This document shows, one piece after another, positions 16,041 to 46,116 of a stretch of 64,000 nucleotides of DNA. The stretch comes from Oceanicoccus sp. (GTDB lineage Bacteria; Pseudomonadota; Gammaproteobacteria; Pseudomonadales; Dasaniaceae). The DNA lies in assembly GCA_036963965.1 (NCBI GenBank), contig JBALTE010000011.1, positions 9,150 to 73,149 of the forward strand, read 5' to 3'. The notes under the pieces were generated by a model. It did not search any database and was not told the origin of the DNA. It was given only the letters and a program-made list of their open reading frames with translations. Every line of letters begins with the position of its first letter. The stretch's first letter is position 1. A program made the position numbers and the translations under genes.

Positions 16041-16290
16041 TGGTTGCCGCCCACTACTGCGTAATGGCTGCACCGAGATTCGATCTTTGCTTTCCCTTGT
16101 TTAAAGTAGTGTATTAGGTTGAATATTTCGGCTACAGTGGACAAAAAAAGAGCAACAATTTTTCTATACCCTCAATCCAGATCAATGCAACAAATCCGTG
16201 ATATATGATCCGAAAGCGGTGATCGACAGGAGATGAGGTGAATATTTGGCAATACAATCACAGTTATTCTGCGAGAGGGGCGAACAAACA

Positions 16291-16764
16291 ATGGCAACAC
16301 TAAAAGTAAACGGTAAAGTAATCGAGGTGGACGTCGAAGGTGATACGCCCTTGTTATGGGTGATTCGCGAACAAATTGGACTCACTGGTACTAAATATGC
16401 CTGCGGCATTGCTCAGTGCGGTTCGTGTACCGTGCACATAGATGGCCGTCCAGTACGGTCCTGTGTTTATCCTGTCGCGGGTGTTACCGCGGACCAAGAA
16501 ATCACTACTATCGAAGGCCTTTCAGAAGAAGGTGATCATCCGGTTCAGCAAGCGTGGGCAGAACTTGATACGCCACAATGCGGTTACTGCCAGTCCGGTA
16601 TGATTATGGCGGCGGCAGCACTGCTTGATAAAACACCGAACCCGAGTGATGAGAATATCAATAGTGAAATTACCAATATTTGTCGTTGCGGCACGTTTCA
16701 GCGAGTACGAGAAGGTATTCACCTCGCAGTAGAAATCAAACATAAGTCTGCAGCGAAGGTTTAA
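16291..16764 (+). CDS. (2Fe-2S)-binding small subunit of a xanthine-oxidase-family molybdenum hydroxylase (IorA-like)
   Basis: Two cluster motifs are present: C-G-x-x-x-C-G-x-C (CGIAQCGSC) and CGYCQSG...CRCG. The ATG at 16291 gives the typical MATLKVNGK start. Confidence 0.85.
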
Positions 16765-16770
16765 GGGGAG

Positions 16771-18963
16771 ATGACTATGGCACAGGAAAAAATGCGTATA
16801 AATCGGCGTCAGTTTGTTATTGGAGCAGCCTCAACGGGTGCTGGACTATCGATTGGATTGGCTCTGCCTATGGGTGCTCAGAAGGCTTTTGCAGACGACC
16901 ACAGTGAATCGTCGACACAGGAAGTTAACGCCTGGGTTGTTATCGATCCTGATGACACGGTAACCATTAGAATTGCAAGATCTGAAATGGGGCAGGGTAC
17001 GCTAACAGGTCTTGCGCAATTGGTGGCGGAAGAGTTGGAATGTGATTGGGATAAAGTGCAGTGGGAATACCCAACCCCGGGAGAAAATTTAAAGCGCGGG
17101 CGTGTTTGGCAAAGTTTTGCCACTGGGGGCAGTCGCGGTATCCGCGGCAGCCATCAGTACGTGCGCGAAGGTGGTGCCATGGCCCGAGAAATGTTGATTG
17201 AGGCGGCTGCCAAAAAATGGGGTGTGGTCGCTGCGGACTGTACCGCAGCTGATAGCAGAATAACCCATTCACCGTCGGGAAAAACGACCACATTCGGTAA
17301 AGTAGCAAACGCTGCTGCTGGTTTAACCCCACCCAGTGAAGTAACGCTAAAAGATCCCAAGACGTGGAAAGTTATTGGCAAACCCAAGAAGCGTCTCGAC
17401 ACGTTAGAGAAATTAACGGGTAAACAAATCTACGGCGCGGATATTACGATGCCAGGTATGCTTAATGCTTCTATAAAGGCCTGCCCCGTTCACGGCGGTA
17501 AACTTGAGTCGTTTGACGCTGAAAAAGTGAGCTCAATGCCGGGGGTGAAATCTGTTATTGCCGTGGGTGATGACGCCGTTGCTGTAGTAGCTACAACATG
17601 GTGGCAGGCCAATAAAGCGTTAAATGCGCTGCCGATCACATGGGACAAAGGTGAGAATACCAAGGTGTCGAGCGCGTCAATCGACAAGTTTTTGCAAGAG
17701 GGACTTTCTGCCGATAATGCTTTTGTGGGAAATAAAGTCGGTGATGTGAAAGCAGGGCTGAAAAAGGCGTCACGTACTTACACTGCTGATTACAGTTACC
17801 CCTACCAAAATCACGCAACTATGGAACCGATGAATGCAACAGCGGTTTGGAGCAAAGAGCGTTGTGAAGTTTGGTGTCCCACGCAAAATGGTGAGGCAGC
17901 TTTGGCTGCGACCATTAGTGCCTCGGAATTGTCCTCCGAAAAATGTGATGTACACAAAGTGAGTCTCGGTGGTGGTTTTGGGCGGCGCGGCGCAACTGAC
18001 TTTGTCACACAGGCCGTGTTAATTGCTAAAACCATGCCCGGTATCCCTGTAAAGCTGCTGTGGACCCGTGAAGAGGATATGCTTCAAGGTATGTTTCATC
18101 CCGTGACCAAGGCCAGAATGACTGCTGGCTTTGATGACGACGGAAATTTGGATGCTTTACATGTGCGTATTTCCGGTCAGTCGATTCTGGCGACGCTAAT
18201 GCCTCAGGCAATAGAGAGCAACGACGGTATGGACCCCGTTGTTTTTCAGGCGATGGCCCCGGAAGGAGATCATGCTATTTCTTATACTGTGCCAAATTTG
18301 TTGGTAGACCATGCCATGCGTAATACACATATTACGCCTGGCTTCTGGCGTGGTGTAAATGTCAATCAAAATGCGATTTATATGGAGTGTTTTTTGGATG
18401 AAGTGGCGCATGAGTCCGGTCAGGATGCGCTGGCTTTCAGGCAGAAGGCAATGAAAAACCATCCTCTCGCCCTGGCGGTATTAAATAAGGCAGCATCGAT
18501 GGCTGGGTGGGGGAAACCTGCGCCGGAAGGTAGACACCTTGGCTTGGCTGTTTGTAAAGCCTTTGGCAGTTATGTGGCTGCTTGTGCCGAAATATCTGTG
18601 GATCAGGGCGAATTGACTATCCACCGTATTTTTGCGGCCACCGACCCCGGGTATGCGGTAAATCCTCAACAGATTGAGGCTCAGGTATCCGGTTCTTTTG
18701 TCTATGGTTTGTCAGCGCTGCTTTACGGGGAGTGCACTGTAAAAGACGGCCAGATCGAACAGCAAAATTTTCATGAATACCCCTCGCTAAAAATGGCGAA
18801 AATGCCGCATGTTGAGACATCAGTTATGCCATCCGGTGGATTCTGGGGTGGTGTTGGTGAGCCAACGATTGCTGTTGCTGCTCCTGCGGTGCTGAATGCT
18901 ATATTTGCAGCAACTGGGAAGCGTATTCGTCATTTGCCGATAAAGAATCAAATCCTTGGGTAG
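16771..18963 (+). CDS. molybdopterin-binding large subunit (IorB / aldehyde-oxidase-like) with a Tat signal
   Basis: Twin-arginine signal INRRQFVIGAAS. The 730-aa length and GGGFGRRG motif are typical of the aldehyde oxidase/xanthine dehydrogenase Mo-binding domain. Confidence 0.85.
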   Translation: MTMAQEKMRINRRQFVIGAASTGAGLSIGLALPMGAQKAFADDHSESSTQEVNAWVVIDPDDTVTIRIARSEMGQGTLTGLAQLVAEELECDWDKVQWEYPTPGENLKRGRVWQSFATGGSRGIRGSHQYVREGGAMAREMLIEAAAKKWGVVAADCTAADSRITHSPSGKTTTFGKVANAAAGLTPPSEVTLKDPKTWKVIGKPKKRLDTLEKLTGKQIYGADITMPGMLNASIKACPVHGGKLESFDAEKVSSMPGVKSVIAVGDDAVAVVATTWWQANKALNALPITWDKGENTKVSSASIDKFLQEGLSADNAFVGNKVGDVKAGLKKASRTYTADYSYPYQNHATMEPMNATAVWSKERCEVWCPTQNGEAALAATISASELSSEKCDVHKVSLGGGFGRRGATDFVTQAVLIAKTMPGIPVKLLWTREEDMLQGMFHPVTKARMTAGFDDDGNLDALHVRISGQSILATLMPQAIESNDGMDPVVFQAMAPEGDHAISYTVPNLLVDHAMRNTHITPGFWRGVNVNQNAIYMECFLDEVAHESGQDALAFRQKAMKNHPLALAVLNKAASMAGWGKPAPEGRHLGLAVCKAFGSYVAACAEISVDQGELTIHRIFAATDPGYAVNPQQIEAQVSGSFVYGLSALLYGECTVKDGQIEQQNFHEYPSLKMAKMPHVETSVMPSGGFWGGVGEPTIAVAAPAVLNAIFAATGKRIRHLPIKNQILG

Positions 18964-18994: not shown

Positions 18995-19321
18995 ATGCGT
19001 TTACTCCGACAGTGTTTGGTTATTGGTTTTTTTGCCAGCGTGTTGTTTCCGCCTGTTTATGCCAGCGATCTACTAACGCAGGCCAGCGCCAATGTAAGTG
19101 CCTGTAGTAGTTGCCATCGTGGCGGTATGGGGAGCGGCGGTATGGCAGGCAGTGGAACCCAGGTAATGGGTGCGCTTAATACATTGTCGGCGGCAAGCAT
19201 CGAGGAAGCGCTGTTGCAATTTCGTTCTGGTGAGCGTGAAGGGACAGTGATGAATCGTTTGGCCCGCGGCTATTCGGACTCGGAAATCGCTGGGATGGCG
19301 AAAGTATTGGCAAGCCAGTGA
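18995..19321 (+). CDS. monohaem c-type cytochrome (FccA/SoxE-like small cytochrome)
   Basis: A signal peptide is followed by a single CSSCH haem motif and the C-terminal MNRLARGYSDSEIAGMAKVL. The start could instead be TTG 18956, which overlaps the previous gene. Confidence 0.7.
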   Translation: MRLLRQCLVIGFFASVLFPPVYASDLLTQASANVSACSSCHRGGMGSGGMAGSGTQVMGALNTLSAASIEEALLQFRSGEREGTVMNRLARGYSDSEIAGMAKVLASQ

Positions 19322-20592
19322 CCCATTTGAATCGTCGCGACATTGTTAAGGGGCTGCTGCTGGCGATGACAGCGGGGGTGGGCGCTAGTTGTGCATCCAC
19401 AAAGGGTTCATCAGCTCGAGTCGTTGTTGTTGGTGGTGGGTTTGCCGGTATGAGCTGTGCTCGTACTTTAAAAAAGTTGTCGCCAACACTGGCGGTGACA
19501 TTAGTTGAACCCAAACAAAGTTATATTGCCTGTCCGTTTAGTAATCTGGTTATTGGTAATCAGCGCAATATTGCTTCCCAGACATTTAGTTACATCGCTG
19601 CAGTTGCCGATGGTGTGACCCATATTAGACGGACGGCTGTTGCTGTTGATCCCGATGCTCATAACGTCACGCTGGATGATGGCCAAGTTCTTGGTTACGA
19701 CAGATTGGTTCTGGCCCCTGGCATTAGCCTTGATTTCGAAGTTTTACCCGGCTATGACGAGGCCGCAGCGAATGACATGCCTCACGCGTGGCTGGCGGGA
19801 ACACAAACGACACTGCTCGCACGGCAACTCGCGGCTATGGATGATGGCGGTACTGTTGTTATATCGGTGCCTGAAAACCCGTATCGCTGTCCACCCGGTC
19901 CATACGAACGTGCTAGCCTCATTGCAAATTATCTTCAAGTGTACAAACCCAAAAGCAAATTGTTGATACTCGACAGTAAAGATCGCTTTTCAAAACAAGC
20001 GCTTTTTATGGCTGCGTGGAAATCGGAATTTGGAGACCTGATTGAGTGGCAGGGACTCAAAGACGGCGCCAGAGTTGTTTCAGTTGATTCAGCGGCGATG
20101 ACGTTAACAACGGATTTTGACGTAATCAAAGCGGATGTAGCGAATGTGATTCCTCCCCAGCGGGCGGGAAAAATTGCCAGAATTAGTGACGTCGCCAATG
20201 CAAGCGGTTGGTGTCCAATAAGTGCATCGACTTTCGAGTCGAGTCTACATGCTGATATTCATGTTATTGGTGATGCCGCCATAGCCAATGCCATGCCAAA
20301 GTCGGCTTTTGCCGCCAATAGCCAGGCCAAGCTCTGTGCCTTACAAATTGCCAGATTGCTGAGCGGTCAAACCCCCGTTGATAGTAAATTAATTAATACG
20401 TGTTACAGCTTAGTAACCCCGGATTACGGAATTTCTGTAGCGGGAGTCTACAAACCAGAAGCAGAGCGCTGGCTTGAAGTTGAAGGCGCAGGAGGCGTTA
20501 GTGGCGCATCTGCACCAAGAGATGTTAGACGGGTAGAGGCTCATTATGCGCGCCAATGGTATAAGTCAATTACACAAGAGGTGTTTGGTTGA
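19318..20592 (+). CDS. fccB: flavocytochrome c sulfide dehydrogenase flavoprotein subunit-like (FccB/SoxF-like), Tat-exported
   Basis: Tat-like NRRDIVKG, an FAD fold (VVVVGGGFAG) and the redox CPFSN...YRCPPGPYERAS motifs. The GTG start overlaps the upstream stop (GTGA). Confidence 0.8.
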   Translation: MTHLNRRDIVKGLLLAMTAGVGASCASTKGSSARVVVVGGGFAGMSCARTLKKLSPTLAVTLVEPKQSYIACPFSNLVIGNQRNIASQTFSYIAAVADGVTHIRRTAVAVDPDAHNVTLDDGQVLGYDRLVLAPGISLDFEVLPGYDEAAANDMPHAWLAGTQTTLLARQLAAMDDGGTVVISVPENPYRCPPGPYERASLIANYLQVYKPKSKLLILDSKDRFSKQALFMAAWKSEFGDLIEWQGLKDGARVVSVDSAAMTLTTDFDVIKADVANVIPPQRAGKIARISDVANASGWCPISASTFESSLHADIHVIGDAAIANAMPKSAFAANSQAKLCALQIARLLSGQTPVDSKLINTCYSLVTPDYGISVAGVYKPEAERWLEVEGAGGVSGASAPRDVRRVEAHYARQWYKSITQEVFG

Positions 20593-21011
20593 TTCGCGTT
20601 TGTGCTTTTTTTTTGGTGCTCCTTCAGAATTCTATTAGTATAGCCTTTGCAGAAGATCGGGAAGATGCACTTACGTCGGAGCCGGGCCGATATGCTGTTG
20701 GTCAGAAGGTTTTTAACGATCGTGACAGAGGACATTGTTTGTTATGCCATCGGTTCAGCCGCAGCGACGAATCCTTTCAGGGTACTATCGGACCTTCGCT
20801 CGATGGTATTGCAACCAGATTGACCGCGCAGCAAATAAGGTATCGGATAGTTGATAATAGTCGGATGAATTCTCAAACGCTGATGCCCGCGTACTTTCGA
20901 ACGGACGGGCTTGTGCAGGTTGCAGCTGAATTTGTCGGGAAGACGATCTTATCGGCCCAAGATATTGAAGACCTCGTCGTTTATCTTGTTTTCGATCCGC
21001 AAGAACAGTAG
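20589..21011 (+). CDS. soxX: SoxX-like monohaem cytochrome c
   Basis: A signal peptide, a single CLLCH motif, then GPSLDG and a distal MPAY Met ligand region. The TTG start overlaps the fccB stop. Confidence 0.7.
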   Translation: MIRVCAFFLVLLQNSISIAFAEDREDALTSEPGRYAVGQKVFNDRDRGHCLLCHRFSRSDESFQGTIGPSLDGIATRLTAQQIRYRIVDNSRMNSQTLMPAYFRTDGLVQVAAEFVGKTILSAQDIEDLVVYLVFDPQEQ

Positions 21012-21032: not shown

Positions 21033-21473
21033 ATGAAAAGGCGAACAGTAATAGTGGGTGCGGCCGTCGGTCTCGCTGTCCAGTTAGCGCCAACAGTCTT
21101 TGCCGGTAAGCTCAAAAAAACGGTGTCTGAATTTTATCGTCAAGAGACTATAACTGTCGGCAAAGTCCGTCTCAAAATACCGCCTCTAGCAGAAAATGGG
21201 AATTCTGTTTCTTTGGCGGTTGAAGTTGATAGTCCAATGACCGACGAAAACTATGTGCAAGAGATTCGAATTTTTGCCGATAAAAACCCGGTGCCAAACC
21301 TCGCTAGTTATCGGCTTTCCCCGGGCTCAGGCAAAGCTAAAGTGGCAACCAGAATTCGATTGTCAAATTCTCAGGTTATAACTGCTGTGGCGCGTATGAA
21401 TGATGGCACGCTGTGGTCGGGCTCTGCTAAAACAATAGTTACGCTGGCGGCTTGTGTCGAGCCACTACTTTAG
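21033..21473 (+). CDS. SoxY-related sulfur-carrier protein with a non-canonical C-terminal arm (..TLAACVEPLL)
   Basis: Tat-like signal (MKRRTVIVGAAVG) and the SoxY core (LKIPPLAENGNSVSLAVEV). The single C-terminal Cys codon is at 21453-21455, in AACVE rather than GGCGG. Confidence 0.75.
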   Translation: MKRRTVIVGAAVGLAVQLAPTVFAGKLKKTVSEFYRQETITVGKVRLKIPPLAENGNSVSLAVEVDSPMTDENYVQEIRIFADKNPVPNLASYRLSPGSGKAKVATRIRLSNSQVITAVARMNDGTLWSGSAKTIVTLAACVEPLL

Positions 21474-21481
21474 GCAATGTG

Positions 21482-21808
21482 ATGAAAGTAAGAATTTCTA
21501 TTCCCCCGCAGGCTGATAGAGGAGAGTTCCTCGAAATTAAGACGCTTGCTTCACATCCGATGCATAGTGGTTTCAGGCGCGATGCGATTGGCGCATTAGT
21601 CCCTCGAGATATTATTGAAATCTTTCGTTGTGAATACAATGAGAAAATTATTTTTGAAGCCGAGTTTGGACCGGGCACTGCTGCAAACCCCTTTCTATCA
21701 TTTTACATTCGCGCTGAAAAAACGGGTGAGGTAAAATTCACCTGGATTGATCAGCACGGAAAAAAGACCGAAGAAATTAAATTTCTCGACGTTGTGGATA
21801 AACATTGA
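21482..21808 (+). CDS. soxZ: SoxZ-like protein
   Basis: MKVRISIPPQADRGEFLEIKTLASHPMHSGFR is the typical SoxZ N-terminus. The protein is about 108 aa and immediately follows the SoxY-like gene. Confidence 0.8.
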   Translation: MKVRISIPPQADRGEFLEIKTLASHPMHSGFRRDAIGALVPRDIIEIFRCEYNEKIIFEAEFGPGTAANPFLSFYIRAEKTGEVKFTWIDQHGKKTEEIKFLDVVDKH

Positions 21809-22584
21809 TGAAAGTGGGGCGTTTGCTGTTTTCGCTGCTCATCATTGTCGAGATGACGGTGGCAATAGCATCCGACATTAAATTGTCACCGCGATCGGGC
21901 TATGAATTTCAATCTATTGATACACAGTCCATGCAAGAGGATGATTTTGAAAACCCTGGTATGTTGTGGGTTGATATGGGTGAGCTTTACTATAACGAGC
22001 CAGCGGGAAAAATGGATCAATCTTGCGCTGATTGTCATGGAGAATTCCCCAAGTCGCTGGCGACGTCGTTTCCGAAAAACAACCACCATCTCGAAGCTGT
22101 TGTGAATCTGACCTCGCAGATCCAGCATTGCAGAACAGTGCACCAGAAGGCAGAACCTATTGATTATGAAAGTGAAACATCGCTAGCGTTGACTGTATAC
22201 CTTGCTAGTCGGGCGCGTGGGGAAATGGTTAATCAGATCGATAGTTCTCCGGTCGATCAGCTAAAGGCGTCAATCGAAAACGGTCGCGTTTACTTTCATC
22301 AGCGTAAGGGGCAGCTCAATCTTAGCTGCAGAAATTGTCATGATAGCAGTGTGGGGAAGATGTTACGGGGGGACTTGATTAGCCAGGGGCAGAGTAACGG
22401 TTACCCAATCTATCGATTAGAGTGGCAATCTCTCGGTTCTCTCCATCGTCGATTTCGCTCCTGTGATATCGGTGTGAAAGCACAAGCACAAGCACTTGGT
22501 AGTAGTATTTATATTAACCTGGAAGCGTATCTAAAAGAGAGGGGTGGTGATTTGCTTATTGAAACACCGGCGGTTCGGCGTTAG
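21808..22584 (+). CDS. soxA: SoxA-like dihaem cytochrome c
   Basis: Signal peptide, two CxxCH motifs (CADCH, CRNCH) and the conserved distal Cys region LHRRFRSCD. The start ATG shares one nucleotide with the soxZ stop. Confidence 0.8.
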   Translation: MKVGRLLFSLLIIVEMTVAIASDIKLSPRSGYEFQSIDTQSMQEDDFENPGMLWVDMGELYYNEPAGKMDQSCADCHGEFPKSLATSFPKNNHHLEAVVNLTSQIQHCRTVHQKAEPIDYESETSLALTVYLASRARGEMVNQIDSSPVDQLKASIENGRVYFHQRKGQLNLSCRNCHDSSVGKMLRGDLISQGQSNGYPIYRLEWQSLGSLHRRFRSCDIGVKAQAQALGSSIYINLEAYLKERGGDLLIETPAVRR

Positions 22585-34194: not shown

Positions 34195-34608
34195 TCAAAA
34201 AAACTTTTTCGCCATATTCAGGGCGCCGCCCAATCCTCCGACGCTTTCGAGCAAATCACCGCCGGAGCTGGATTTATCGATTAAGCTGGGTAGGACTTCG
34301 CTCAAGCCATTGGTTGCAGTCTCTTGATTGAGGCCGAGGCTGCCAGCAAAAGCCGATAGCTTATCTCCACCAAACATTTCTAACAGTTGTGATGGGTCTA
34401 TGCTTTTATTACCACCATCGCCTAACCATGATCCAACAATATTGCCCAGCGCGCCACTGCTGGCAAACTTGCCAACAAGCCCTGCGATGTCTAAACCACC
34501 ACTGCCATCGCCGAGTAAACCTGATAAAGCACTACCTGCTTTTTCCTCAGATACATCGCCGCCAAGTTGTTTGGCGAGAAGTTGGGATCCAATTTGCAAT
34601 AAATCCAT
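34195..34608 (-). CDS. YidB/DUF937-like Gly-rich protein
   Basis: Gly-rich repeats with GLLGDGSGG and ...GLSEVLPSLIDKSSSGG, as I recall for DUF937. Confidence 0.6.
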   Translation of the reverse strand: MDLLQIGSQLLAKQLGGDVSEEKAGSALSGLLGDGSGGLDIAGLVGKFASSGALGNIVGSWLGDGGNKSIDPSQLLEMFGGDKLSAFAGSLGLNQETATNGLSEVLPSLIDKSSSGGDLLESVGGLGGALNMAKKFF

Positions 34609-34632: not shown

Positions 34633-36117
34633 TTATCGCCCTTTAAAGAAAGAGCCTAGAATACCGCGAACTAGTTTTCCGGTCATTTGCCGACCTAGAC
34701 TTCTCGCGATGCTTTTTACAAATGCTTCGCCAACACTTTGTCGCTTGCGGCCAACCGATTTAGCTTTGGGCGCCTTTTGTATTCGTGATGTTTTTGTTGT
34801 TGCCTCTTCCGCCTCTTTTGCCGCTTCTTCTGAGCGTTGCATCAGGATTTCGTAAGCGGATTCACGATCGACCGACTTATCATACTTATCTTTAACGGGG
34901 CTGCTAAGTTTGACCTCTTCTCGTTCGGCCTTTTTGGCGGGTCCGATTCGTGAGTACGGGGGTTTAATCATAACCCGTTGCACCACGCTGGGTGCACCAT
35001 TTTTTAGTAGTGTTGATACCAGTGCTTCACCAACCGACATTTCGGTAATAACGTCGCGTGTTGAAAAATTGGCATTAGCGCGGAACGTGTCCGCCGCAGC
35101 TCTAACCGCTTTTTGCTCTTTAGGAGTAAACGCGCGCAAAGCGTGCTGGACACGATTGCCAAGCTGGCCAAGCACCGAATCAGGGATGTCGCTTGGACTT
35201 TGCGACACAAAGTAGACGCCAACCCCTTTTGATCGGATTAATCGAACCACTTGTTCTATTTTTGAAATGAGGGCTTTCGGAGCGTCTTTAAACAACAAGT
35301 GAGCTTCATCGAAAAAGAACACCAATACAGGTTTGTCTGGGTCGCCAATCTCGGGTAGGTTTTCAAATAATTCAGACAGCAGCCAAAGCAACAATGTCGA
35401 ATATAGCTTGTTGTTTTGTATGAGTTTATTGGCGGCAAGTACGTTAACGTAACCACGACCATCGGGGGTAGTGCGCATTAAGTCATTTAGTTCTAACATT
35501 GGCTCGCCGAAAAATTGTTTGGCGCCGGCTCGCTCAAGAACCAATAGTCGCCGCTGGATCGCGCCTACAGAAGAAGTAGAAACGTTGCCGTATAGTATGC
35601 GCAAATCCGCCGCGTTTTCGGCAACATGCTGTAACATGGCTTTTAGATCTTTCAAATCGAGTAATAAGATGCCTTGATCGTCAGCCACAGCAAAAGCAAT
35701 GGTTAAAATACCTTCCTGAGTTTCATTAAGCCCCATTAATTGAGCAAGTAACAATGGCCCCATATCAGAAACAGTAGCGCGAATCGGGTGGCCTTGTTTT
35801 CCATACACATCCCAAAAAATAGTTGGCACGCCAGCCCATGCATCCTCTGGTAAGCCCAGAATAGAGAGGCGTTCGTTAACTTTTGGATGAGGTTTCCCTG
35901 CTTGACTGATGCCTGATATATCGCCTTTCACATCGGCTAAAAAGACGGGAACACCTTGCCGAGAGAAATTTTCAGCTAAGGCCTGTAAGGTCACAGTTTT
36001 CCCTGTGCCTGTTGCTCCCGCAATTAGGCCGTGGCGGTTAGCGCGCTTCAATTCAAGAGAAATGTGTTGGTCATGCGCATTTGCCGAGTAACCCAGCAAG
36101 ATAGAATCAGTGCTCAT
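34633..36117 (-). CDS. HerA-like P-loop ATPase, DUF853 (YjgR-like)
   Basis: Walker A GATGTGKT, Walker B-like VLVFFFDEAH and a basic Lys/Arg-rich C-terminal tail. Confidence 0.75.
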   Translation of the reverse strand: MSTDSILLGYSANAHDQHISLELKRANRHGLIAGATGTGKTVTLQALAENFSRQGVPVFLADVKGDISGISQAGKPHPKVNERLSILGLPEDAWAGVPTIFWDVYGKQGHPIRATVSDMGPLLLAQLMGLNETQEGILTIAFAVADDQGILLLDLKDLKAMLQHVAENAADLRILYGNVSTSSVGAIQRRLLVLERAGAKQFFGEPMLELNDLMRTTPDGRGYVNVLAANKLIQNNKLYSTLLLWLLSELFENLPEIGDPDKPVLVFFFDEAHLLFKDAPKALISKIEQVVRLIRSKGVGVYFVSQSPSDIPDSVLGQLGNRVQHALRAFTPKEQKAVRAAADTFRANANFSTRDVITEMSVGEALVSTLLKNGAPSVVQRVMIKPPYSRIGPAKKAEREEVKLSSPVKDKYDKSVDRESAYEILMQRSEEAAKEAEEATTKTSRIQKAPKAKSVGRKRQSVGEAFVKSIARSLGRQMTGKLVRGILGSFFKGR

Positions 36118-39333: not shown

Positions 39334-39498
39334 GTTTTAGTAAACCACTTTACACGGTTCGGTTTGGCTGCGCAGACTCTTAAAGTCCGAACCGCGCTCT
39401 AGAAAATTCGTTAGCCTCATTTCATCACTGTTTAGGTTGTGGAGTATATGGGGTAAAGTCACTCTAAAACTGCGTTTATGGGCGTTAGAGAGCTTCGA

Positions 39499-40830
39499 AT
39501 GAATAAGAAAAAAATCTGCGTTGTTGGAGGCGGCCCGGCAGGGCTCACAACAACAAAAACCCTGGTTGCTGCAGGACATGAGGTCGACTGTATCGAGATG
39601 TCGCCTTATATTGGTGGCCACTGGGTACTGGAAAACCCCAATGGACGTTCTGCTGCATATCGGTCACTGACGACCAATACCACCAAAAATATGAGTCGCT
39701 TTAGTGACTATGAGCTGCCTGAAGATTGGCCGACCTATCCCGGTCATGAGCAGCTGCGACAGTGGCTGGAAAGTTATGTTGATTATTTTTCCTTCCGCAA
39801 ACGCATTCAAACCAGCACAGAAGTCGTGGCCACCCAGCAGCGTGATGACGGTGGTTGGACGGTAACATTGCGACGAGGCGACAGTCAGCTGACAGAAGAT
39901 GTCGAATATGATGCACTGGTAGCCGCAAGTGGCAGTTATTGGGATTACCAAATACCGCAGTGGCAGGGCACTTTTGATGGCACTATTATTCATGCCCAAG
40001 ACTATATCGATACCGACAAACCTTTTGCCACAGAGGGTGCTAATGTGGTGGTGGTGGGTATTGGTAACACCGGTTGTGAGCTTTCATGTGAAATTTCACG
40101 AGCGGGAGCTGCCTCGGTACACCTTTCGGCTCGGGGTGGGGCTTGGATTCTACCGCGGTTAATCGATGGTAAACCGGCTTCAGACAGCAGCCCTATGGTT
40201 CATCCCTGTGACCCGGTTCCAGCCTTATTTCGCTGGACACCGGCCGCCTATCGCGAGCGTCTATTTGAATGGGTTGCCGGCAAAAAAATCCGTCAGATGC
40301 ATGCCGCGCGTATGGCACGTTTTCATGAATTGGGTTTGCCACCAGCGCCGGAGAACCCGATATTCAATCGGCCGACGATTTCTGACGATATCCTGGGGTA
40401 TCTGGAGCGCGGTGCAATTACAGCGCAGCCTGAGATTGAGCGTCTCAGTGGCCAAAATGTCATTTTTGCCAATGGCGAATCGGTTAGGGCAGATTTTGTG
40501 CTGTGTGCCACGGGTTATCGGCTGAGTTTCCCTTACATAGACAAAACGGTTGTTGATACTAGCGATAACGACCTTAACTTGTTTTGTGGAATAGTGCCGC
40601 CGCAGTGTGACAATTTGTTTTTTATTGGCGTGAGCCGTCCCCTTGGGTCGTTCTGGCCGCTGGCCGAGGCGCAGGCGCAATTTGTCGGTGAACTACTTGC
40701 CGGTCGTTATCGATTGCCCCCGGCAGAACAACTGCTGCAGCGATCCGCTCCGGCGCTCAATCGTGTCTCCACGAGCCCGGGTTTGTATGGTCTGTCGCTA
40801 CGCGAAGAGCTAGCTCGAGGAGCTTGCTAA
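39499..40830 (+). CDS. class B flavin-containing monooxygenase (FMO-like)
   Basis: GGGPAGL FAD motif, FMO-identifying F-x-G-x3-H-x3-Y (FDGTIIHAQDY) and the second dinucleotide motif GIGNTGCE. Confidence 0.85.
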   Translation: MNKKKICVVGGGPAGLTTTKTLVAAGHEVDCIEMSPYIGGHWVLENPNGRSAAYRSLTTNTTKNMSRFSDYELPEDWPTYPGHEQLRQWLESYVDYFSFRKRIQTSTEVVATQQRDDGGWTVTLRRGDSQLTEDVEYDALVAASGSYWDYQIPQWQGTFDGTIIHAQDYIDTDKPFATEGANVVVVGIGNTGCELSCEISRAGAASVHLSARGGAWILPRLIDGKPASDSSPMVHPCDPVPALFRWTPAAYRERLFEWVAGKKIRQMHAARMARFHELGLPPAPENPIFNRPTISDDILGYLERGAITAQPEIERLSGQNVIFANGESVRADFVLCATGYRLSFPYIDKTVVDTSDNDLNLFCGIVPPQCDNLFFIGVSRPLGSFWPLAEAQAQFVGELLAGRYRLPPAEQLLQRSAPALNRVSTSPGLYGLSLREELARGAC

Positions 40831-41001
40831 AAACACTGGTTCAATATGGCGGATGCGTGGAGAGGGAATACCATAATAAGTCCACCATGGATTGTCTGTG
40901 CGCAAAAGAGTATTGTGATATTCGCGATACAGGCTGACAGGGAGTAATGAACTCTGTAGGCAAAAAATTGTAAGAACTAGAATTGAGTTGGAGGTGCATC
41001 T

Positions 41002-42114
41002 ATGGCAGCGACAGATATCTTGAATCAACAGGAAGAATATAACTCAGTTGCCAGGAAATATGCACAGCGCTTGGTCGAATTTAGAGCCGCTGAAAAACAA
41101 GCAACAAGCGCGCGAGAAAAACCGGCAGAGGAAGTGTTCCCCGCTTTCGACAGAACCGGACTGGGGGTAAGCCTTGAGTTTGAACGCATGGGAAATCAAT
41201 CTGTTTCTGACCAATTACAGTCACAGGCGGATGCTTTTGGAATAAGGTTTGAACATATCGGGTTAACCCTTGGAACAATATTGCATGGCATCGATATAAA
41301 ACAGACGCTGTCGGAAGAACTCACTAAGTTTGTTCGAGATACGTTATTAGAACGCAAGGTGATTTTTTTTCGGGATCAAAATTTGTCCGAAGATGAGCAG
41401 GTGTCATTTAGTCGACAGTTCGGTGAACTTGATGCATTTCCTTTTGGTAAACCGGGGGATAATCCCTATATTTTGGAGATAGTTCATGGTCCACAAAGTC
41501 CCGGGATAGAGAATAGTTGGCATACTGACGTTACGTGGATGGAAAAACCTTCCCTTGGGTCAATTGCTCAGTGTGTCAGAGTGCCACCTTATGGGGGTGA
41601 TACACTTTTTGCTGACAGTTACGCGTGTTATCGCGGCTTGCCCGACGGTATTGCAGAACGACTTCAGCACCTCCATGCGATTAATGATTATCAGATTTTT
41701 CTGATGGGGAGGGGCGCTGGACAGCTACCCGATGACCTTGTTGATGGACTCAAAAAAGAGATACCTTTTGGGGTGAGTCATCCACTGCTACGCACGCACC
41801 CGGAAACAGGAATAACAGCTCTGTATATTCATGGTGGTTTTTTAAGGCATGATTCACTGTTTGATGTACGTACCGGAGAAAGTTTGCCCGCCGCAGAGTC
41901 GAGGCAATTGGTCGCGCTACTTCTAAAACAACACGGACGACCTGAATACGGCTGTCGTTTTAAGTGGGAGCCAGGGTCAATAGCTTTTTGGGATAACCGC
42001 GCGGTGCAGCATTATGCCGCAAGCGATTACTTCCCCCACGACAGATTGTTGCGCAGAGTTACGGTCAGTGGTGATAAGCCATTTTATGATGCAGCGTTTA
42101 AAACTGAGAGCTAG
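41002..42114 (+). CDS. TauD/TfdA-family Fe(II)/2-oxoglutarate dioxygenase with an ~80-aa N-terminal extension
   Basis: WHTDVTW (H-x-D facial triad) and the C-terminal WDNRAVQH motif. Confidence 0.85.
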   Translation: MAATDILNQQEEYNSVARKYAQRLVEFRAAEKQATSAREKPAEEVFPAFDRTGLGVSLEFERMGNQSVSDQLQSQADAFGIRFEHIGLTLGTILHGIDIKQTLSEELTKFVRDTLLERKVIFFRDQNLSEDEQVSFSRQFGELDAFPFGKPGDNPYILEIVHGPQSPGIENSWHTDVTWMEKPSLGSIAQCVRVPPYGGDTLFADSYACYRGLPDGIAERLQHLHAINDYQIFLMGRGAGQLPDDLVDGLKKEIPFGVSHPLLRTHPETGITALYIHGGFLRHDSLFDVRTGESLPAAESRQLVALLLKQHGRPEYGCRFKWEPGSIAFWDNRAVQHYAASDYFPHDRLLRRVTVSGDKPFYDAAFKTES

Positions 42115-42179
42115 TTTGGATACGAGTAATAAAAACTGGCAAGCTATCGTCGTAGTTCAATAAAAGGAGTAAGCATAAT

Positions 42180-42668
42180 ATGTCTAAATTTCTAAACTCT
42201 GGAGACGTTTTTCCCTCCATCACCTTGAATTTGGCGGGTGGGGGTACCTTCTCACTGCCGGACGATATTGAAACGCCAATGACGATCGCCTTGTTCTATC
42301 GAGGTCACTGGTGACCTTTTTGTCGGCGGTTATTAGCCGGTTATAATGAGCGCCGTGCTGCGTTCTTAGAAGAAGGTGTAAGTATCATTGCCGGTACGGT
42401 CGATACTGAAGAGCAAACCCTCGAAATATCTCAAGACTGGGACTTTCCAGTCGCGTATGGCATGACTCGCGCTGACGGTGATGCAATGGGGGCATGGTGG
42501 GAGCAACGACGTGATCATATTCAGCCGAGCGAGTTCTTACTGACTAAAAGCGGCAAGGTGATGATGTCAACCTACAGTAATTCGCCGATTGGCCGGATGG
42601 ATCCTGCGGAGGCACTGGTGTTAATTAAATTTTTGAACGCACAGCGGGCCAAGGCTAAGCAGGGCTAA
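42180..42668 (+). CDS. peroxiredoxin-like (AhpC/TSA, PRX_like2-type) thioredoxin-fold protein with an in-frame TGA at codon 45: candidate selenoprotein, or a recent pseudogene
   Basis: The ATG at 42180 has AGGAG at 42165-42169. The frame is open except for the TGA at 42312-42314 and ends at TAA 42666-42668. Context is ALFYRGHW-TGA-PFCRR. The paralogue at 45439..46116 reads VVFYRGGWCPYCNV. The track lists only the last 68 aa (42462..42668). Confidence 0.6.
42322..42341 (+). promoter_or_regulatory. candidate SECIS-like hairpin downstream of the in-frame TGA
   Basis: GUCGGC (42322-42327) pairs with GCCGGU (42336-42341): four G-C pairs plus two G-U wobbles. The 8-nt apical loop GGUUAUUA starts 13 nt after the UGA. 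Flanking U-rich and A/U stretches could extend the stem with bulges. Confidence 0.35.
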
Positions 42669-42675
42669 TGTACCT

Positions 42676-42715
42676 ATAGGACTCTGCTTCCCGCTGAGGT
42701 GAAGCAGAGTCCTAT
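42676..42715 (+). terminator. perfect 15-bp stem-loop after the peroxiredoxin-like ORF
   Basis: ATAGGACTCTGCTTC (42676-42690) pairs with GAAGCAGAGTCCTAT (42701-42715) around a 10-nt loop. There is no strong T-run. Confidence 0.5.
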
Positions 42716-42831
42716 CCTTGAAATTGTTCTATGTTGTATCAGTACATCATACCTTTAACACCACAACCATTATTTGTGTTTCCCGCCTCTATATACGCGT
42801 CCGTATTTTTAATGAAAATGGCACGTCAAAA

Positions 42832-43176
42832 ATGCGATATGATCTAAAACAAAAGTTGCTATTGGCAGAATATATGACAACGCAATCAATTGACTTATCG
42901 GCCCGCCAGCAAGTGATGGTGCTCTATACGGCAAACTCGGCATTGGATACCGCTGTTATTGCCTGGTCTTTTTATGATGGCACCGGCAAAACGACCCATA
43001 TGGCAGGTGATCAAAATGAACCTCCTTACCAGACGGGGCTCGATGCACTTCTTGATGGCTGGCGCCTTATTCAAGCTAGTCCACTTGTTAGCCATGTTTC
43101 GGGCGACGAGTTTAAGACCGGTTATCTGAAGTACGAGTTCTTTTTTGAAAAGATGGTTGCAATGGAGGAGGTGTAA
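42832..43176 (+). CDS. hypothetical protein (114 aa)
   Basis: An ORF whose stop (43174-43176) lies 1 nt before the next gene's ATG, with GGAGGAGG for that gene embedded in its 3' end (translational coupling). No motif recognised. The start at 42832 is my choice over the track's 42718. Confidence 0.5.
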   Translation: MRYDLKQKLLLAEYMTTQSIDLSARQQVMVLYTANSALDTAVIAWSFYDGTGKTTHMAGDQNEPPYQTGLDALLDGWRLIQASPLVSHVSGDEFKTGYLKYEFFFEKMVAMEEV

Positions 43177-43177
43177 T

Positions 43178-44110
43178 ATGAGCAAGCCGATATTACTCAG
43201 CTCAGAAAAAATGGCGCAGTTTGCTTCCCGCGGTTTCCTGATGATGGAGGGGGTGGTGCCCAAACGTATCAACGACCAGTTTCTGAAAGATATCGGCAAG
43301 GTGCCTGAGTCAGAAATCAGCGATCCAATGAGTTATTACGGCAAGGTCATGGGTAGCAGTGCCATTCCAGTCGTGAGTGCGGGAGTTCCTCTTTCTGATG
43401 GCTACCCGGCTGACAATGCCTTGGCAAAAATGTTGGCGCTTCCTAAAGTCATGGGAGCGGTGCAAAGTTTAGTGGGTGATGCGCCGAGTTTTGATCATCA
43501 TTTTTTACATATGACTTTTCCGCCTAACTTTTACCAAGACAGCAGCCGACCTCAGGCTTCGCAACACTGGCATCAGGATTCTACCATCGACCCCAGACAG
43601 GCTTTCGACGTGCAGATAATGTATTTTCCTCACGCTGTCACCGCCAAAATGGGCGGGACTCGTTATCTGCCGGGTAGCCATTTACGCATTGTCAGTGAAG
43701 CTGCCATTGGTCGTTATCAAAATATTAGAGGTCAGGAGTTCGTGACCTGTAAAGCGGGAACGTTATTGTTTATGCATATGGGTATTTGGCATGGGGGCGG
43801 CTTAAACCTATCCAACAAGGTGCGATATATGTTTAAAATTCGCATGTGCCCAACACAGCGACAAGAACGACTCTGGGATACTTCAGACCTGGGCAGCGAT
43901 CATTTTGAACAAAGGCCAATTTTCTGGACCGGGCTTAAGGGTATTACAAATCCGATTCACGAAACACTGACCACCTCCGAGCCTTGGTTCGAACATGACA
44001 CCGGGCGGCTAGAATATATTAATCGAGTGTTATTCTGGCGTTACCTGCTCGGTGATAACAGCTTTGATGCAGACTATTGGTTGACCCGAATTGAGAATGA
44101 ATTTCCTTAA
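43178..44110 (+). CDS. phytanoyl-CoA dioxygenase (PhyH) family Fe(II)/2-oxoglutarate oxygenase
   Basis: HWHQDS (H-x-D) and a distal GIWHGGG His. About 310 aa from the ATG at 43178. Confidence 0.8.
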   Translation: MSKPILLSSEKMAQFASRGFLMMEGVVPKRINDQFLKDIGKVPESEISDPMSYYGKVMGSSAIPVVSAGVPLSDGYPADNALAKMLALPKVMGAVQSLVGDAPSFDHHFLHMTFPPNFYQDSSRPQASQHWHQDSTIDPRQAFDVQIMYFPHAVTAKMGGTRYLPGSHLRIVSEAAIGRYQNIRGQEFVTCKAGTLLFMHMGIWHGGGLNLSNKVRYMFKIRMCPTQRQERLWDTSDLGSDHFEQRPIFWTGLKGITNPIHETLTTSEPWFEHDTGRLEYINRVLFWRYLLGDNSFDADYWLTRIENEFP

Positions 44111-44136
44111 CTCACTTGATCTATGATCGAGTAAAC

Positions 44137-45384
44137 ATGCCGGAGAAAAATATGAAAATGCCAGAGAAAGGCACTAGCTGGGAGCAGCTGGCACCTGAGA
44201 TGATTAACCGTGGTCGCGGTGACGCAAAGTGGCGTGAGGGCAAAACTGCAGTCTACGTTTTTAATGCAGGAGAAGATGTTGCTCGCGTACAAAAAGAAGC
44301 CTATACCATGTACATGTCGGAAAACGGTCTTGGTCCGGCAGCCTTTCCTTCTCTGAGGCAAATGGAAGAAGAAGTTATTCAAATGGGGCTAGGATTACTA
44401 CATGGACCCGAGTCGTCAGAGGGTTCGATAACTTCTGGCGGAACTGACTCAATCACAATGGCGGTAAAAGCAGCAAGAGACTATGCCAGAAATGAACTGG
44501 GTAAGACCGGGAAATTGAATATTGTGGCACCTTATTCAGCACATCCCGCTTTTGACAAAGCTTCAATTATGATGGATGTGGAATTACGCCGTATTCCTGT
44601 CGACAGCAATCTATTGGCCGACTGTGACGCGATGGCGGCTGCTATTGACGATAGCACAATGATGTTAGTGGGTTCTGCCCCCAACTTTCCTTATGGGCTG
44701 ATTGATCCGATTACTGAACTTGGCCAAATAGCTGAGCGAAAAAATGTCTGGCTCCATGTGGATGCCTGTGTCGGTGGCTACATTGCACCGTTTGTGCGGA
44801 TGAATGGTGTTGATATACCCGATTTTGATTTTTCTGTACCAGGTGTTTTATCAATGTCAGCTGATCTACACAAATACGGGTTTTGCGCTAAAGGAGCGTC
44901 AACTGTTTTGTTTAGAAATGCTGAACTCAAAAAGCATATGATTTTTGACTGCAAAGATTGGCCGGGTGGCAGAATGATTACACCGACACTAGCCGGCACA
45001 AGACCCGGCGGTGCAATTTCTGCCGCATGGGCTGTTATGAATTATCTTGGCGTTGAAGGATACAAAGACAAACATCTACAGGTAACCGACGCGCGTGCAG
45101 CGATCGAAACAGGGGTAAAGAAACTGGGATTTAAGATTCTTGGGACACCTTTGTTAGGTATTATTGCATTTGAGCATCCAGACATGGATGTGTTTGCAAT
45201 CTATAAACAAATGTATGATCGAGGTTGGTTTACGTCGTTAACAACGCAGCCCAAGGCACTACACTTGATGCTTTCTCCATTTCACAAAACCGTGACGGAT
45301 GTCTATTTGCGTGATCTTGCAGAATCAATCGAACAAGTGAAGGCTGGCGACAAAAGTGCGGTGAAAGAATCCAGATACAGTTAG
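44137..45384 (+). CDS. PLP-dependent group II decarboxylase-fold enzyme, sphingosine-1-phosphate-lyase-like
   Basis: PLP-lysine region SMSADLHKYGFCAKGASTVLFRN, followed by WPGGRMITPTLAGTRPGGAISAAWA. This closely parallels my recollection of the SGPL1 sequence ISADTHKYGFAPKGSS...GGIYASPTIAGSRPGG. No N-terminal TM segment is present. Confidence 0.75.
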   Translation: MPEKNMKMPEKGTSWEQLAPEMINRGRGDAKWREGKTAVYVFNAGEDVARVQKEAYTMYMSENGLGPAAFPSLRQMEEEVIQMGLGLLHGPESSEGSITSGGTDSITMAVKAARDYARNELGKTGKLNIVAPYSAHPAFDKASIMMDVELRRIPVDSNLLADCDAMAAAIDDSTMMLVGSAPNFPYGLIDPITELGQIAERKNVWLHVDACVGGYIAPFVRMNGVDIPDFDFSVPGVLSMSADLHKYGFCAKGASTVLFRNAELKKHMIFDCKDWPGGRMITPTLAGTRPGGAISAAWAVMNYLGVEGYKDKHLQVTDARAAIETGVKKLGFKILGTPLLGIIAFEHPDMDVFAIYKQMYDRGWFTSLTTQPKALHLMLSPFHKTVTDVYLRDLAESIEQVKAGDKSAVKESRYS

Positions 45385-45438: not shown

Positions 45439-46116
45439 TTAACGCGTCATAGTGTCAATGACACCCAGCAGTTGTTCGACACTGGGTCGAGTTTTGTAAT
45501 CTAAAGAAGTGTGCGCCCATTTCACCACTGAATCTTTATCGACAATGTAGGCAGCAGTGACAGCAATTTTGTGATGATTTCCCCCCGACCATGCTTCCAG
45601 GTCTATACCATATTGTTTATATTTTTCGAAGGTTGCATCATCTACATCTCGAACCACCTCGAAGGCATTGTGCGCGACTAGTTTCGGGTCTGATAACACT
45701 GGAAAGGGAATTTCGTAAGTTCGTTGTGCCAGAGCAGCGCCGTCTGTTTTATCCACGCTGATTAGAACCGGTGTGATATTGCGCTTTTCAAATTCTGGCC
45801 ATGCCTCTGTCAATTGGTGTATCTGAACATTGCAGTAAGGGCACCAGCCGCCGCGATAAAACACAACTAACGTGTCACCCATTGATTGAATATCGTTAAG
45901 TGTCACTGGCTTGTTGTCGTGAGTGTTAATGGAAAAATCCGCTACGGTTGTGCCTACGGCCAGACCGATGTTGTTTTCTCGTGTGCCAAGTTGTTGTTGA
46001 GCGGTAACTGTAAGATTCGGATTCGCCGATGGAATCTTCAGCTCTGCTGTTGCCGTTAGGCTAAACAGTATGAGTTGTAACGCGATGAGTAACGTTCTGG
46101 CTGGGTGATTTAACAT
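45439..46116 (-). CDS. secreted peroxiredoxin-like / redoxin family protein (Cys form)
   Basis: Signal peptide, then VVFYRGGWCPYCNVQIHQL (WCPxC). Confidence 0.8.
   Translation of the reverse strand: MLNHPARTLLIALQLILFSLTATAELKIPSANPNLTVTAQQQLGTRENNIGLAVGTTVADFSINTHDNKPVTLNDIQSMGDTLVVFYRGGWCPYCNVQIHQLTEAWPEFEKRNITPVLISVDKTDGAALAQRTYEIPFPVLSDPKLVAHNAFEVVRDVDDATFEKYKQYGIDLEAWSGGNHHKIAVTAAYIVDKDSVVKWAHTSLDYKTRPSVEQLLGVIDTMTR

Follow-up and report, generated by a model that had tools for sequence, protein, structure and literature searches.

Does a TGA triplet that interrupts a peroxiredoxin-like gene end translation, or is it read as selenocysteine (Sec)? The question is raised by positions 42180 to 42668 of a 64,000-nucleotide stretch of DNA from Oceanicoccus sp., the whole of which was analysed and is called the window hereafter. 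An earlier note on this DNA, made from the letters alone, had proposed a selenoprotein gene with a UxxC motif, and its readings of the Shine-Dalgarno-like AGGAG, the start codon, the TGA, the terminal TAA and the 68-residue tail of the open reading frame (ORF) were all correct. A single frame opens with the ATG at 42180 and closes with the TAA at 42666-42668; the TGA at 42312-42314 divides it into 44 sense codons before and 117 after. Around the TGA the protein reads ..FYRGHW*PFCRRLLAGYNERR.., the full context being FYRGHW*PFCRRLLAGY. In this frame a mechanical ORF list shows only the 68-residue tail (42462..42668), and the GenBank record GCA_036960145.1 (contig JBALVW010000005.1) annotates the gene as two 'hypothetical' ORFs of 44 and 68 residues. 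As argued below, 42180..42668 is very probably a single gene, with UGA codon 45 specifying Sec, whose product is a 162-residue member of the 'Prx-like 1' selenoprotein family. This reading is strongly supported by a TGA conserved in relatives, by a coding signal on both sides of it, by orthologues with Cys at the site and by a hairpin that follows the UGA.

The in-frame TGA is conserved among relatives

Relatives were gathered from two sources. A genome scan, with one genome per species, identified 221 genomes with relatives, of which the best 80 (60-86% identity) were examined at the DNA level, and a metagenome scan added 61 further loci containing the motif. The combined set of 141 loci (80 species genomes and 61 metagenome contigs) spans 54-86% protein identity and comprises 128 distinct sequences. 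TGA is found at exactly the homologous codon in 80 of the 80 genome loci and in 61 of the 61 metagenome loci, that is, in 141/141; the occurrence of orthologues with TGA at this site had been set beforehand as a test of the proposal. In the best 80 genome loci, almost all of which are marine metagenome-assembled genomes (MAGs) labelled OM182, Azotimanducaceae, Pseudohongiella or Pseudomonadales, at least 44 open codons precede the TGA and 112-124 follow it. The TGA at 42312 is far beyond what chance would produce.

The pattern of substitutions bears on whether the two parts of the frame are translated together. Nucleotide diversity at codon positions 1/2/3 is 0.33/0.21/0.63 over the 33 codons upstream of the TGA and 0.23/0.19/0.58 over the 55 codons downstream, where the frame is intact, as judged by the excess at position 3 over position 2. 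None of the 128 distinct sequences contains an additional in-frame stop, and in most loci the frame has an ATG 44 codons ahead of the TGA. Diversity of period 3 on both sides, the lack of extra stops and the position of the ATG together indicate that both halves are translated in the same frame and that purifying selection acts on each; the state of the downstream frame was another of the tests named in the earlier note, and it speaks for the proposal. The window copy retains 52 of the 52 alignment columns that are conserved at 95% or more in the family, and hence the gene is not decaying.

A six-frame scan for stops joining two open segments yielded the selenoprotein gene as the only convincing TGA-bridged ORF in the window. 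Across 1.8 Mb of related flanks, robust and conserved TGA-bridged ORFs were restricted to the Prx-like 1 family, and no further selenoprotein genes were found in that scan.

A few loci (L numbers denote DNA loci and P numbers protein entries) carry this gene of gammaproteobacterial type under incongruent MAG labels. These are L018, L055, L065, L069 and L077, with labels that include Candidatus Fonsibacter ubiquis, Myxococcota, Synoicihabitans and Klebsiella pneumoniae, which suggests mis-binned contigs or horizontal transfer.

Cysteine orthologues and database entries

The 255 homologues returned by a protein search include distant orthologues with Cys at the Sec column, namely P0025 (HWCPFC), which is 56% identical to the window protein and encoded on a 3.84-Mb contig, and P0072, P0076, P0078 and P0080 (HWCPLC), which are about 46% identical. 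The Cys codons, TGC and TGT, were confirmed in the DNA of the Cys-form loci L081 and L082. The residue of homologues at this column is Cys and never Trp, and W44, P46 and C48 are invariant in the family. Cys/Sec pairs, whose presence at this site the earlier note had pointed to as a check, thus exist.

The same note had compared the gene with a Cys-containing paralogue in the window. This protein, with its WCPYC motif, is indeed encoded at 45439..46116 (-), and the alignment of the two motifs is valid. Nevertheless, it is only 22% identical to the selenoprotein over 86 residues, and it is a distant relative in the superfamily and not a close paralogue; the true Cys orthologues are found elsewhere, as exemplified by P0025. 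The WCPYC protein is an AhpC/TSA protein with a hydrophobic N-terminus that falls into no curated family, its best NCBIfam match being 'SelL-related redox protein' with 51 bits against a cut-off of 120.

Close homologues in public databases are mostly C-terminal fragments of 93-114 residues that begin past the Sec site. Their starts differ from entry to entry and are not conserved (MAGYEE.., MLTGYE.., LAEGVS.., MSIIAG..). The close entries that appear to be 'full-length', P0001-P0011, P0037 and P0041, read HWWPFC, with Trp at the Sec site. Most likely, these Trp residues stem from gene callers that assumed a TGA=Trp code for contigs no longer than a few kilobases. A systematic search of databases for Trp at sites that carry Cys in distant homologues could yield selenoprotein candidates.

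In L081 (7886-10969), the Cys-form orthologue directly follows two glutathione S-transferase genes and a MAPEG gene and precedes a YHS-domain gene. About 8-9 kb upstream of it are a third glutathione S-transferase gene and one for cysteine dioxygenase. This neighbourhood may hint at a glutathione-linked role.

A compact hairpin follows the UGA

Stem pairing and covariation were assessed in an ungapped alignment of 81 sequences, with 500 shuffles as control. The family hairpin is 17 nt long, with a stem of 7 bp and a loop of 3 nt; it is contained within the codons for R-R-L-L-A-G, and its stem begins 10 nt after the UGA. In this register 91% of the cells are paired, as opposed to 7-51% when the partner strand is slid by one to three columns. 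Three of the seven pairs show changes on both sides, and 15 cells are changed on both sides where 2.3 are expected. The observed pairing and covariation score was reached by none of the 500 shuffles. In an example of compensation, a GC pair has become UA where Ala is replaced by Asp or Asn, the partner Arg or Leu codon being altered synonymously.

Two controls address the part played by the encoded peptide. The Cys orthologue at L081 encodes CRRVLAG, and no hairpin forms in it, with 3 of 7 positions pairable, in what is a single sequence. Synonymous third positions in the stem were also compared with those of the same amino acids elsewhere in the same genes. Pairing-competent codons are used for Arg(+5) (CGG) in 71% of cases in the stem versus 14% elsewhere, for Ala(+8) (GCY) in 92% versus 48%, and for Arg(+4) (CGY) in 99% versus 73%; the binomial p-values for these sites are overstated owing to the relatedness of the sequences, and the effect sizes are large. 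Taken together, the comparisons indicate a conserved 17-nt hairpin that is kept by compensatory and synonymous changes, in agreement with the conserved structure that the earlier note had expected after the TGA.

Published criteria for a bacterial Sec insertion sequence (bSECIS; SECIS for the element in general) are a loop of 3-9 nt, a stem of at least 4 bp, a G in the first two loop positions, a distance of 16-37 nt from the UGA and an energy of -7.5 kcal/mol or lower (PMC13188914). The spacing of the family hairpin from the UGA fits these values. Its commonest loop context, U-GUU-A (39 of 103 distinct sequences), fits the published N1-G-[G/U]-N-N2 pattern, and in 82 of the 103 the local minimum-energy fold reaches the limit of -7.5 kcal/mol or lies below it. 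A G occupies the first loop position in 62/103 and is absent in about 40%, the window included; two loop uridines are nearly invariant across the family. At the family level the element therefore has the features of a bSECIS stem-loop, and the window alone is borderline.

In the window, the family register (42325-42341) forms 6 of the 7 pairs, with one G.G mismatch, an AUU loop and -4.4 kcal/mol. The earlier note had described a hairpin GUCGGC-GGUUAUUA-GCCGGU at 42322-42341 with a loop 16 nt from the U of UGA. Both the position and the distance hold, and the hairpin reaches -6.1 kcal/mol (-7.5 for the local minimum-energy fold, with loop GGUUAUUA). This register is specific to the window, the family one being at 42325-42341; as a conserved structure we rejected it, given that 79% of cells are paired with no covariation and that the central pair is broken in 71 of 76 sequences. 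An extended hairpin at 42324-42355 has -14.9 kcal/mol in its minimum-energy fold (z = -1.7), a stability matched by 16 of 200 shuffles. It was rejected likewise, as pairing across the family is 67%, equal to that of shuffles. All three structures lie within the same 34 nt.

It is tempting to speculate, even if we consider it rather unlikely, that a Sec-only clade of OM182/Pseudohongiella-type bacteria uses a minimal 17-nt SECIS in which the apical-loop guanosine is dispensable. If true, the SelB of these bacteria would have to recognise the loop in an altered way, and the element would make up a distinct class of bacterial SECIS. In the lineage of the window, the SECIS might moreover have shifted to a different register.

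Of note, a sigma-70-like match (TTGTCG, 16 nt, TATAAT; 10/12) at 42320-42347 overlaps the SECIS region within the coding sequence. As this region contains fewer promoter-like matches than shuffled sequence (2 versus 3.6), the match is probably due to chance.

Predicted fold and active centre

With U read as C, the window protein matches Pfam AhpC-TSA (PF00578) with 7e-13 and 49 bits against a cut-off of 26, and Redoxin is matched as well. In NCBIfam no model reaches its cut-off on the protein: there is no match to NF040737 (PrxU), and NF040769 (SelL-related redox protein) scores 18.4 bits against a cut-off of 120. The missing model may explain the lack of annotation in the GenBank record.

The natural Cys orthologue P0025 was modelled by AlphaFold in place of the window protein, with a mean predicted local distance difference test (pLDDT) of 90.3 and a predicted template modelling score (pTM) of 0.86. 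Foldseek matched the model to a series of BCP/PrxQ, AhpC and Prx6 structures in the PDB, with template modelling (TM) scores of 0.78-0.86 and a probability of 1.0; the best match is 3hjp (Bcp4), with a TM of 0.86 and 16% identity. The (U/C)xxC motif directly precedes helix 48-59 of the model. Profile alignments place U45 on the Thr of the peroxiredoxin TxxC and C48 on the peroxidatic Cys, and both residues also on the CxxC of ResA. The Pro position of peroxiredoxins is occupied by the invariant R41, and the position of the catalytic Arg, as assigned from one profile alignment only, falls in the invariant QPSEF motif. The protein thus has the fold of canonical peroxiredoxins and lacks their PxxxTxxC and catalytic Arg signature. 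According to the model, it would combine a BCP/PrxQ-type peroxiredoxin fold with a thioredoxin-like UxxC centre and would not be a canonical peroxiredoxin. This is just how Zhang and colleagues characterised the 'Prx-like' selenoproteins.

How such a protein might be made and function can be outlined. By the established bacterial mechanism, SelB-GTP carrying Sec-tRNA(Sec) would bind the hairpin as the ribosome reaches the UGA, so that Sec would be inserted and termination avoided. The product is presumably cytoplasmic, as suggested by fold and motif, and inspection by eye detected no signal or membrane-anchor sequence in the window protein. The selenolate of U45 might then attack a disulfide or a hydroperoxide, and C48 would resolve the Se-S or Se-OH intermediate so formed to a selenenylsulfide, which a thioredoxin- or glutathione-type system might re-reduce.

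Relationship to known proteins and elements

The family to which the gene belongs has been described before. The Sargasso Sea study of Zhang, Fomenko & Gladyshev (2005) described a selenoprotein family under the name 'Prx-like protein', in which UXXC stands where Sec-containing Prx has TXXU (PMC1088965). The Global Ocean Sampling (GOS) study of Zhang & Gladyshev (2008) lists 'Prx-like 1' in Table 2 as pfam00578 with UxxC, represented by 225 selenoproteins in 37 samples (PMC2398784). Three '#Prx-like 1' entries of Dataset S1 of that study are 80%, 80% and 72% identical to the window protein. The two 80%-identical entries, JCVI_READ_1093012136010 and JCVI_READ_1161201, have U at the same position, and the former reads MPNFLNSGDSFPSITL...FYRGHWUPFCRRLLAGYEERRAAF.... 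The string RGHWUP occurs 30 times in the dataset. The window protein therefore shares with Prx-like 1 the PF00578 domain, the UxxC motif, the marine origin and a direct sequence relationship to listed members, with no substantive difference. The statement in the earlier note that peroxiredoxin-like families had been reported from marine metagenomes was accurate and covers the exact orthologous group. The gene is an instance of a group published in 2008 as a predicted selenoprotein; it is already known and represents no new kind of system. What sets the window copy apart is a slightly degenerate hairpin and the fact that the gene is split and unrecognised in the GenBank record.

Comparisons with other redox proteins help to situate the active centre. 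PrxU (NF040737) resembles the window protein in its peroxiredoxin fold, its single active-site Sec and the SECIS inside the coding sequence. In PrxU, however, Sec replaces the peroxidatic Cys (TxxU), whereas the window protein has it in place of the Thr and still has Cys at the peroxidatic position (UxxC). BCP/PrxQ proteins such as Sulfolobus Bcp4 (3hjp) have a similar overall fold, with a TM of 0.86 over the whole chain, but they are only 16-23% identical to the window protein, in which their PxxxTxxC becomes RxxxUxxC. The thioredoxin-type core with W-C/U-x-x-C at the start of helix alpha-1 is common to ResA/TlpA proteins (WCxxC), and the profile match to ResA is 5e-7. ResA and TlpA are membrane-anchored and extracytoplasmic; in contrast, the window protein has a longer, peroxiredoxin-type architecture and no anchor by eye. 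As for the recoding element, it is, like the E. coli fdhF-type SECIS and the bSECIS consensus, a hairpin inside the ORF directly past the UGA, with a small apical loop and a spacing within 16-37 nt. Unlike them, it is very compact (17 nt), and the G at the first loop position is found in only part of the family, in the proportion given above.

A literature search joining OM182, Pseudohongiella or Azotimanducaceae with selenocysteine retrieved nothing relevant. In at least 80 species of abundant marine Gammaproteobacteria, Prx-like 1 is fixed in its Sec form. The practical value of the finding lies in annotation, because ORF finders and gene callers miss the gene, and most of the closest public entries are fragmentary or contain a spurious Trp. 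Prx-like 1 is a good candidate for a curated model, and for a first biochemical test of a Prx-like UxxC selenoprotein.

Points against the selenoprotein reading and rival explanations

Several observations weigh against the proposal that UGA is decoded as Sec here. First, the Sec machinery is assumed. Searches of the 64-kb window, of about 82 kb of contig JBALVW010000005.1 and of about 1.8 Mb of related flanks brought up no selA, selB, selD or tRNA-Sec gene. ARAGORN detected no tRNA-Sec, whether in the window, in any of the loci or in the flanking sequence of roughly 10 kb on either side of the window. Queried by tblastn with the E. coli SelA, SelB and SelD proteins, 1.82 Mb of loci gave only a weak, 25% identical SelD-like match in L063, presumably another protein of the same broad superfamily; the E. 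coli proteins matched nothing in the contig extensions past the window edges, and Pfam applied to the concatenated ORFs of the whole window identified no Sec genes. As selA, selB, selD and tRNA-Sec genes usually lie elsewhere in the genome than the selenoprotein gene, their absence from the sequence reached is uninformative rather than negative. Rfam reported no SECIS family, either at gathering thresholds over the whole window or in a permissive scan of 42150-42750, the hits of those scans being spurious microRNA matches on the 3' palindrome only. The window hairpin is weaker than those of the relatives, with its G.G mismatch, its modest energy and, in the family register, a loop without G. 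The catalytic chemistry and the substrate are matters of inference only. Finally, a 2026 review lists the 'Prx-like thiol:disulfide oxidoreductase' as 'predicted with high confidence' and not experimentally verified (PMC13188914). The small doubt that we retain concerns the Sec machinery, which is assumed, and the standing of the family as a prediction.

Other explanations of the TGA must be weighed against Sec. An isolated in-frame stop looks like the outcome of a recent TGY-to-TGA nonsense mutation, the alternative put forward in the earlier note, and the two fragments annotated in the record would fit a pseudogene in this genome. That possibility is practically nil: the TGA is shared by all relatives down to 54% identity, which as 128 distinct sequences are not assembly duplicates, purifying selection operates on both sides of it, and the window copy has kept all highly conserved residues. 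It is hardly more credible that termination at the UGA is normal and gives rise to a 44-residue peptide and, by re-initiation, to a C-terminal protein. Most public gene calls for relatives are indeed C-terminal fragments, but their starts are not conserved, and the first start after the TGA in the window leaves 68 residues only. Furthermore, the predicted fold requires strands from both halves, the active-site CxxC straddles the break, and conservation of the AhpC-TSA domain extends to the 44 N-terminal codons.

Alternatively, the UGA might be translated as a residue other than Sec, through a TGA=Trp/Gly code or through near-cognate read-through (Trp/Cys) after loss of the Sec machinery, as the W at this site in P0001-P0011 and the failure to find that machinery in the available sequence might suggest. 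We deem this quite improbable. Of the 47 genes in the window with Pfam support, 9 end with TGA, and its ordinary use as a stop elsewhere in this DNA rules out a recoded genome. Homologues have Cys and never Trp at the column, a reassigned codon needs no selected structure directly after it, and the W entries, which come mostly from short contigs, fit alternative-code trials by gene callers. Lastly, the hairpin could be a by-product of the peptide RRLLAG and of a preference for GC-rich codons, the real recoding signal being located elsewhere. Its stem is wholly coding, one of its pairs never varies, and the repetitive GCC/GGC sequence permits several registers. However, the Cys orthologue with CRRVLAG does not form the stem, where Ala gives way to Asp or Asn, the partner Arg or Leu codon has changed synonymously, and third positions in the stem deviate strongly from the codon usage of the genes toward pairing, with the reservation about p-values made above. 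Such a by-product is accordingly very unlikely in our view. The decoding of codon 45 as Sec thus remains the reading that we favour.

Gene layout and genomic context

The features of the selenoprotein locus are compiled in Table 1.

Table 1. Coordinates of the features of the selenoprotein locus in the window
Feature	Position	Strand	Remarks
Shine-Dalgarno-like AGGAG	42165..42169	+	10 nt 5' of the ATG; read from the sequence
Predicted selenoprotein coding sequence	42180..42668	+	162 residues including Sec45; ends with TAA; AhpC/TSA (PF00578) domain
In-frame TGA, predicted Sec, residue 45	42312..42314	+	TGA at the homologous codon in relatives, Cys in distant orthologues
Redox motif U45-P-F-C48 (UxxC)	42312..42323	+	From the translation; predicted N-terminus of helix alpha-1
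Putative SECIS core, family register	42325..42341	+	Stem 42325-42331 / 42335-42341, loop 42332-42334 (AUU)
Hairpin register of the earlier note	42322..42341	+	6-bp stem (5 bp in the local minimum-energy fold), loop GGUUAUUA
Window-specific extended hairpin	42324..42355	+	CGGCG/CGCCG plus UUAUUA/UAAUGA, loop GCCGGUUA
Perfect 15-bp inverted repeat with 10-nt loop	42676..42715	+	Arms 42676-42690 / 42701-42715; 8 nt past the stop codon

The perfect 15-bp hairpin that had been noticed after the stop codon is real. It has an energy of -29.3 kcal/mol, is devoid of a T-run and is unique in the window, where a terminator scan made no call for it. In L001 the gene is followed by a homologous hairpin, and a strong hairpin of one kind or another comes after the stop in most relatives. 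Given these strong hairpins past the stop here and in relatives, the palindrome is probably a transcript-end hairpin, with the transcript ending just past the selenoprotein gene.

At 39478-45384 (+), the selenoprotein gene is part of a same-strand run with genes for a flavin monooxygenase, a TauD-like dioxygenase, a PhyH-like dioxygenase and an MfnA-like pyridoxal phosphate-dependent decarboxylase. These neighbours are not conserved next to the gene, with none recurring in more than 20 of about 140 loci, and they therefore provide no operon-based clue to function. A TauD orthologue is located 5.7 kb from the gene in L002.

Elsewhere in the window, a YidB-like ORF (34195-34608, -) is in frame with a HerA-like helicase gene (34633-36117, -), the two being separated by a TAA and 8 codons; since the stop is TAA, this junction is not a Sec candidate. 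Genes for a 2Fe-2S subunit (16246-16764) and a molybdenum cofactor-binding subunit (16771-18963) form a molybdenum-hydroxylase pair, directly followed by sulfur-oxidation genes through 22584. Among the latter, an ORF at 20589-21011 without a Pfam match has a haem-binding CxxCH by eye. The others encode a flavocytochrome-c sulfide dehydrogenase flavoprotein (19318-20592), SoxY (21033-21473), SoxZ (21452-21808) and a SoxA-like cytochrome (21805-22584).

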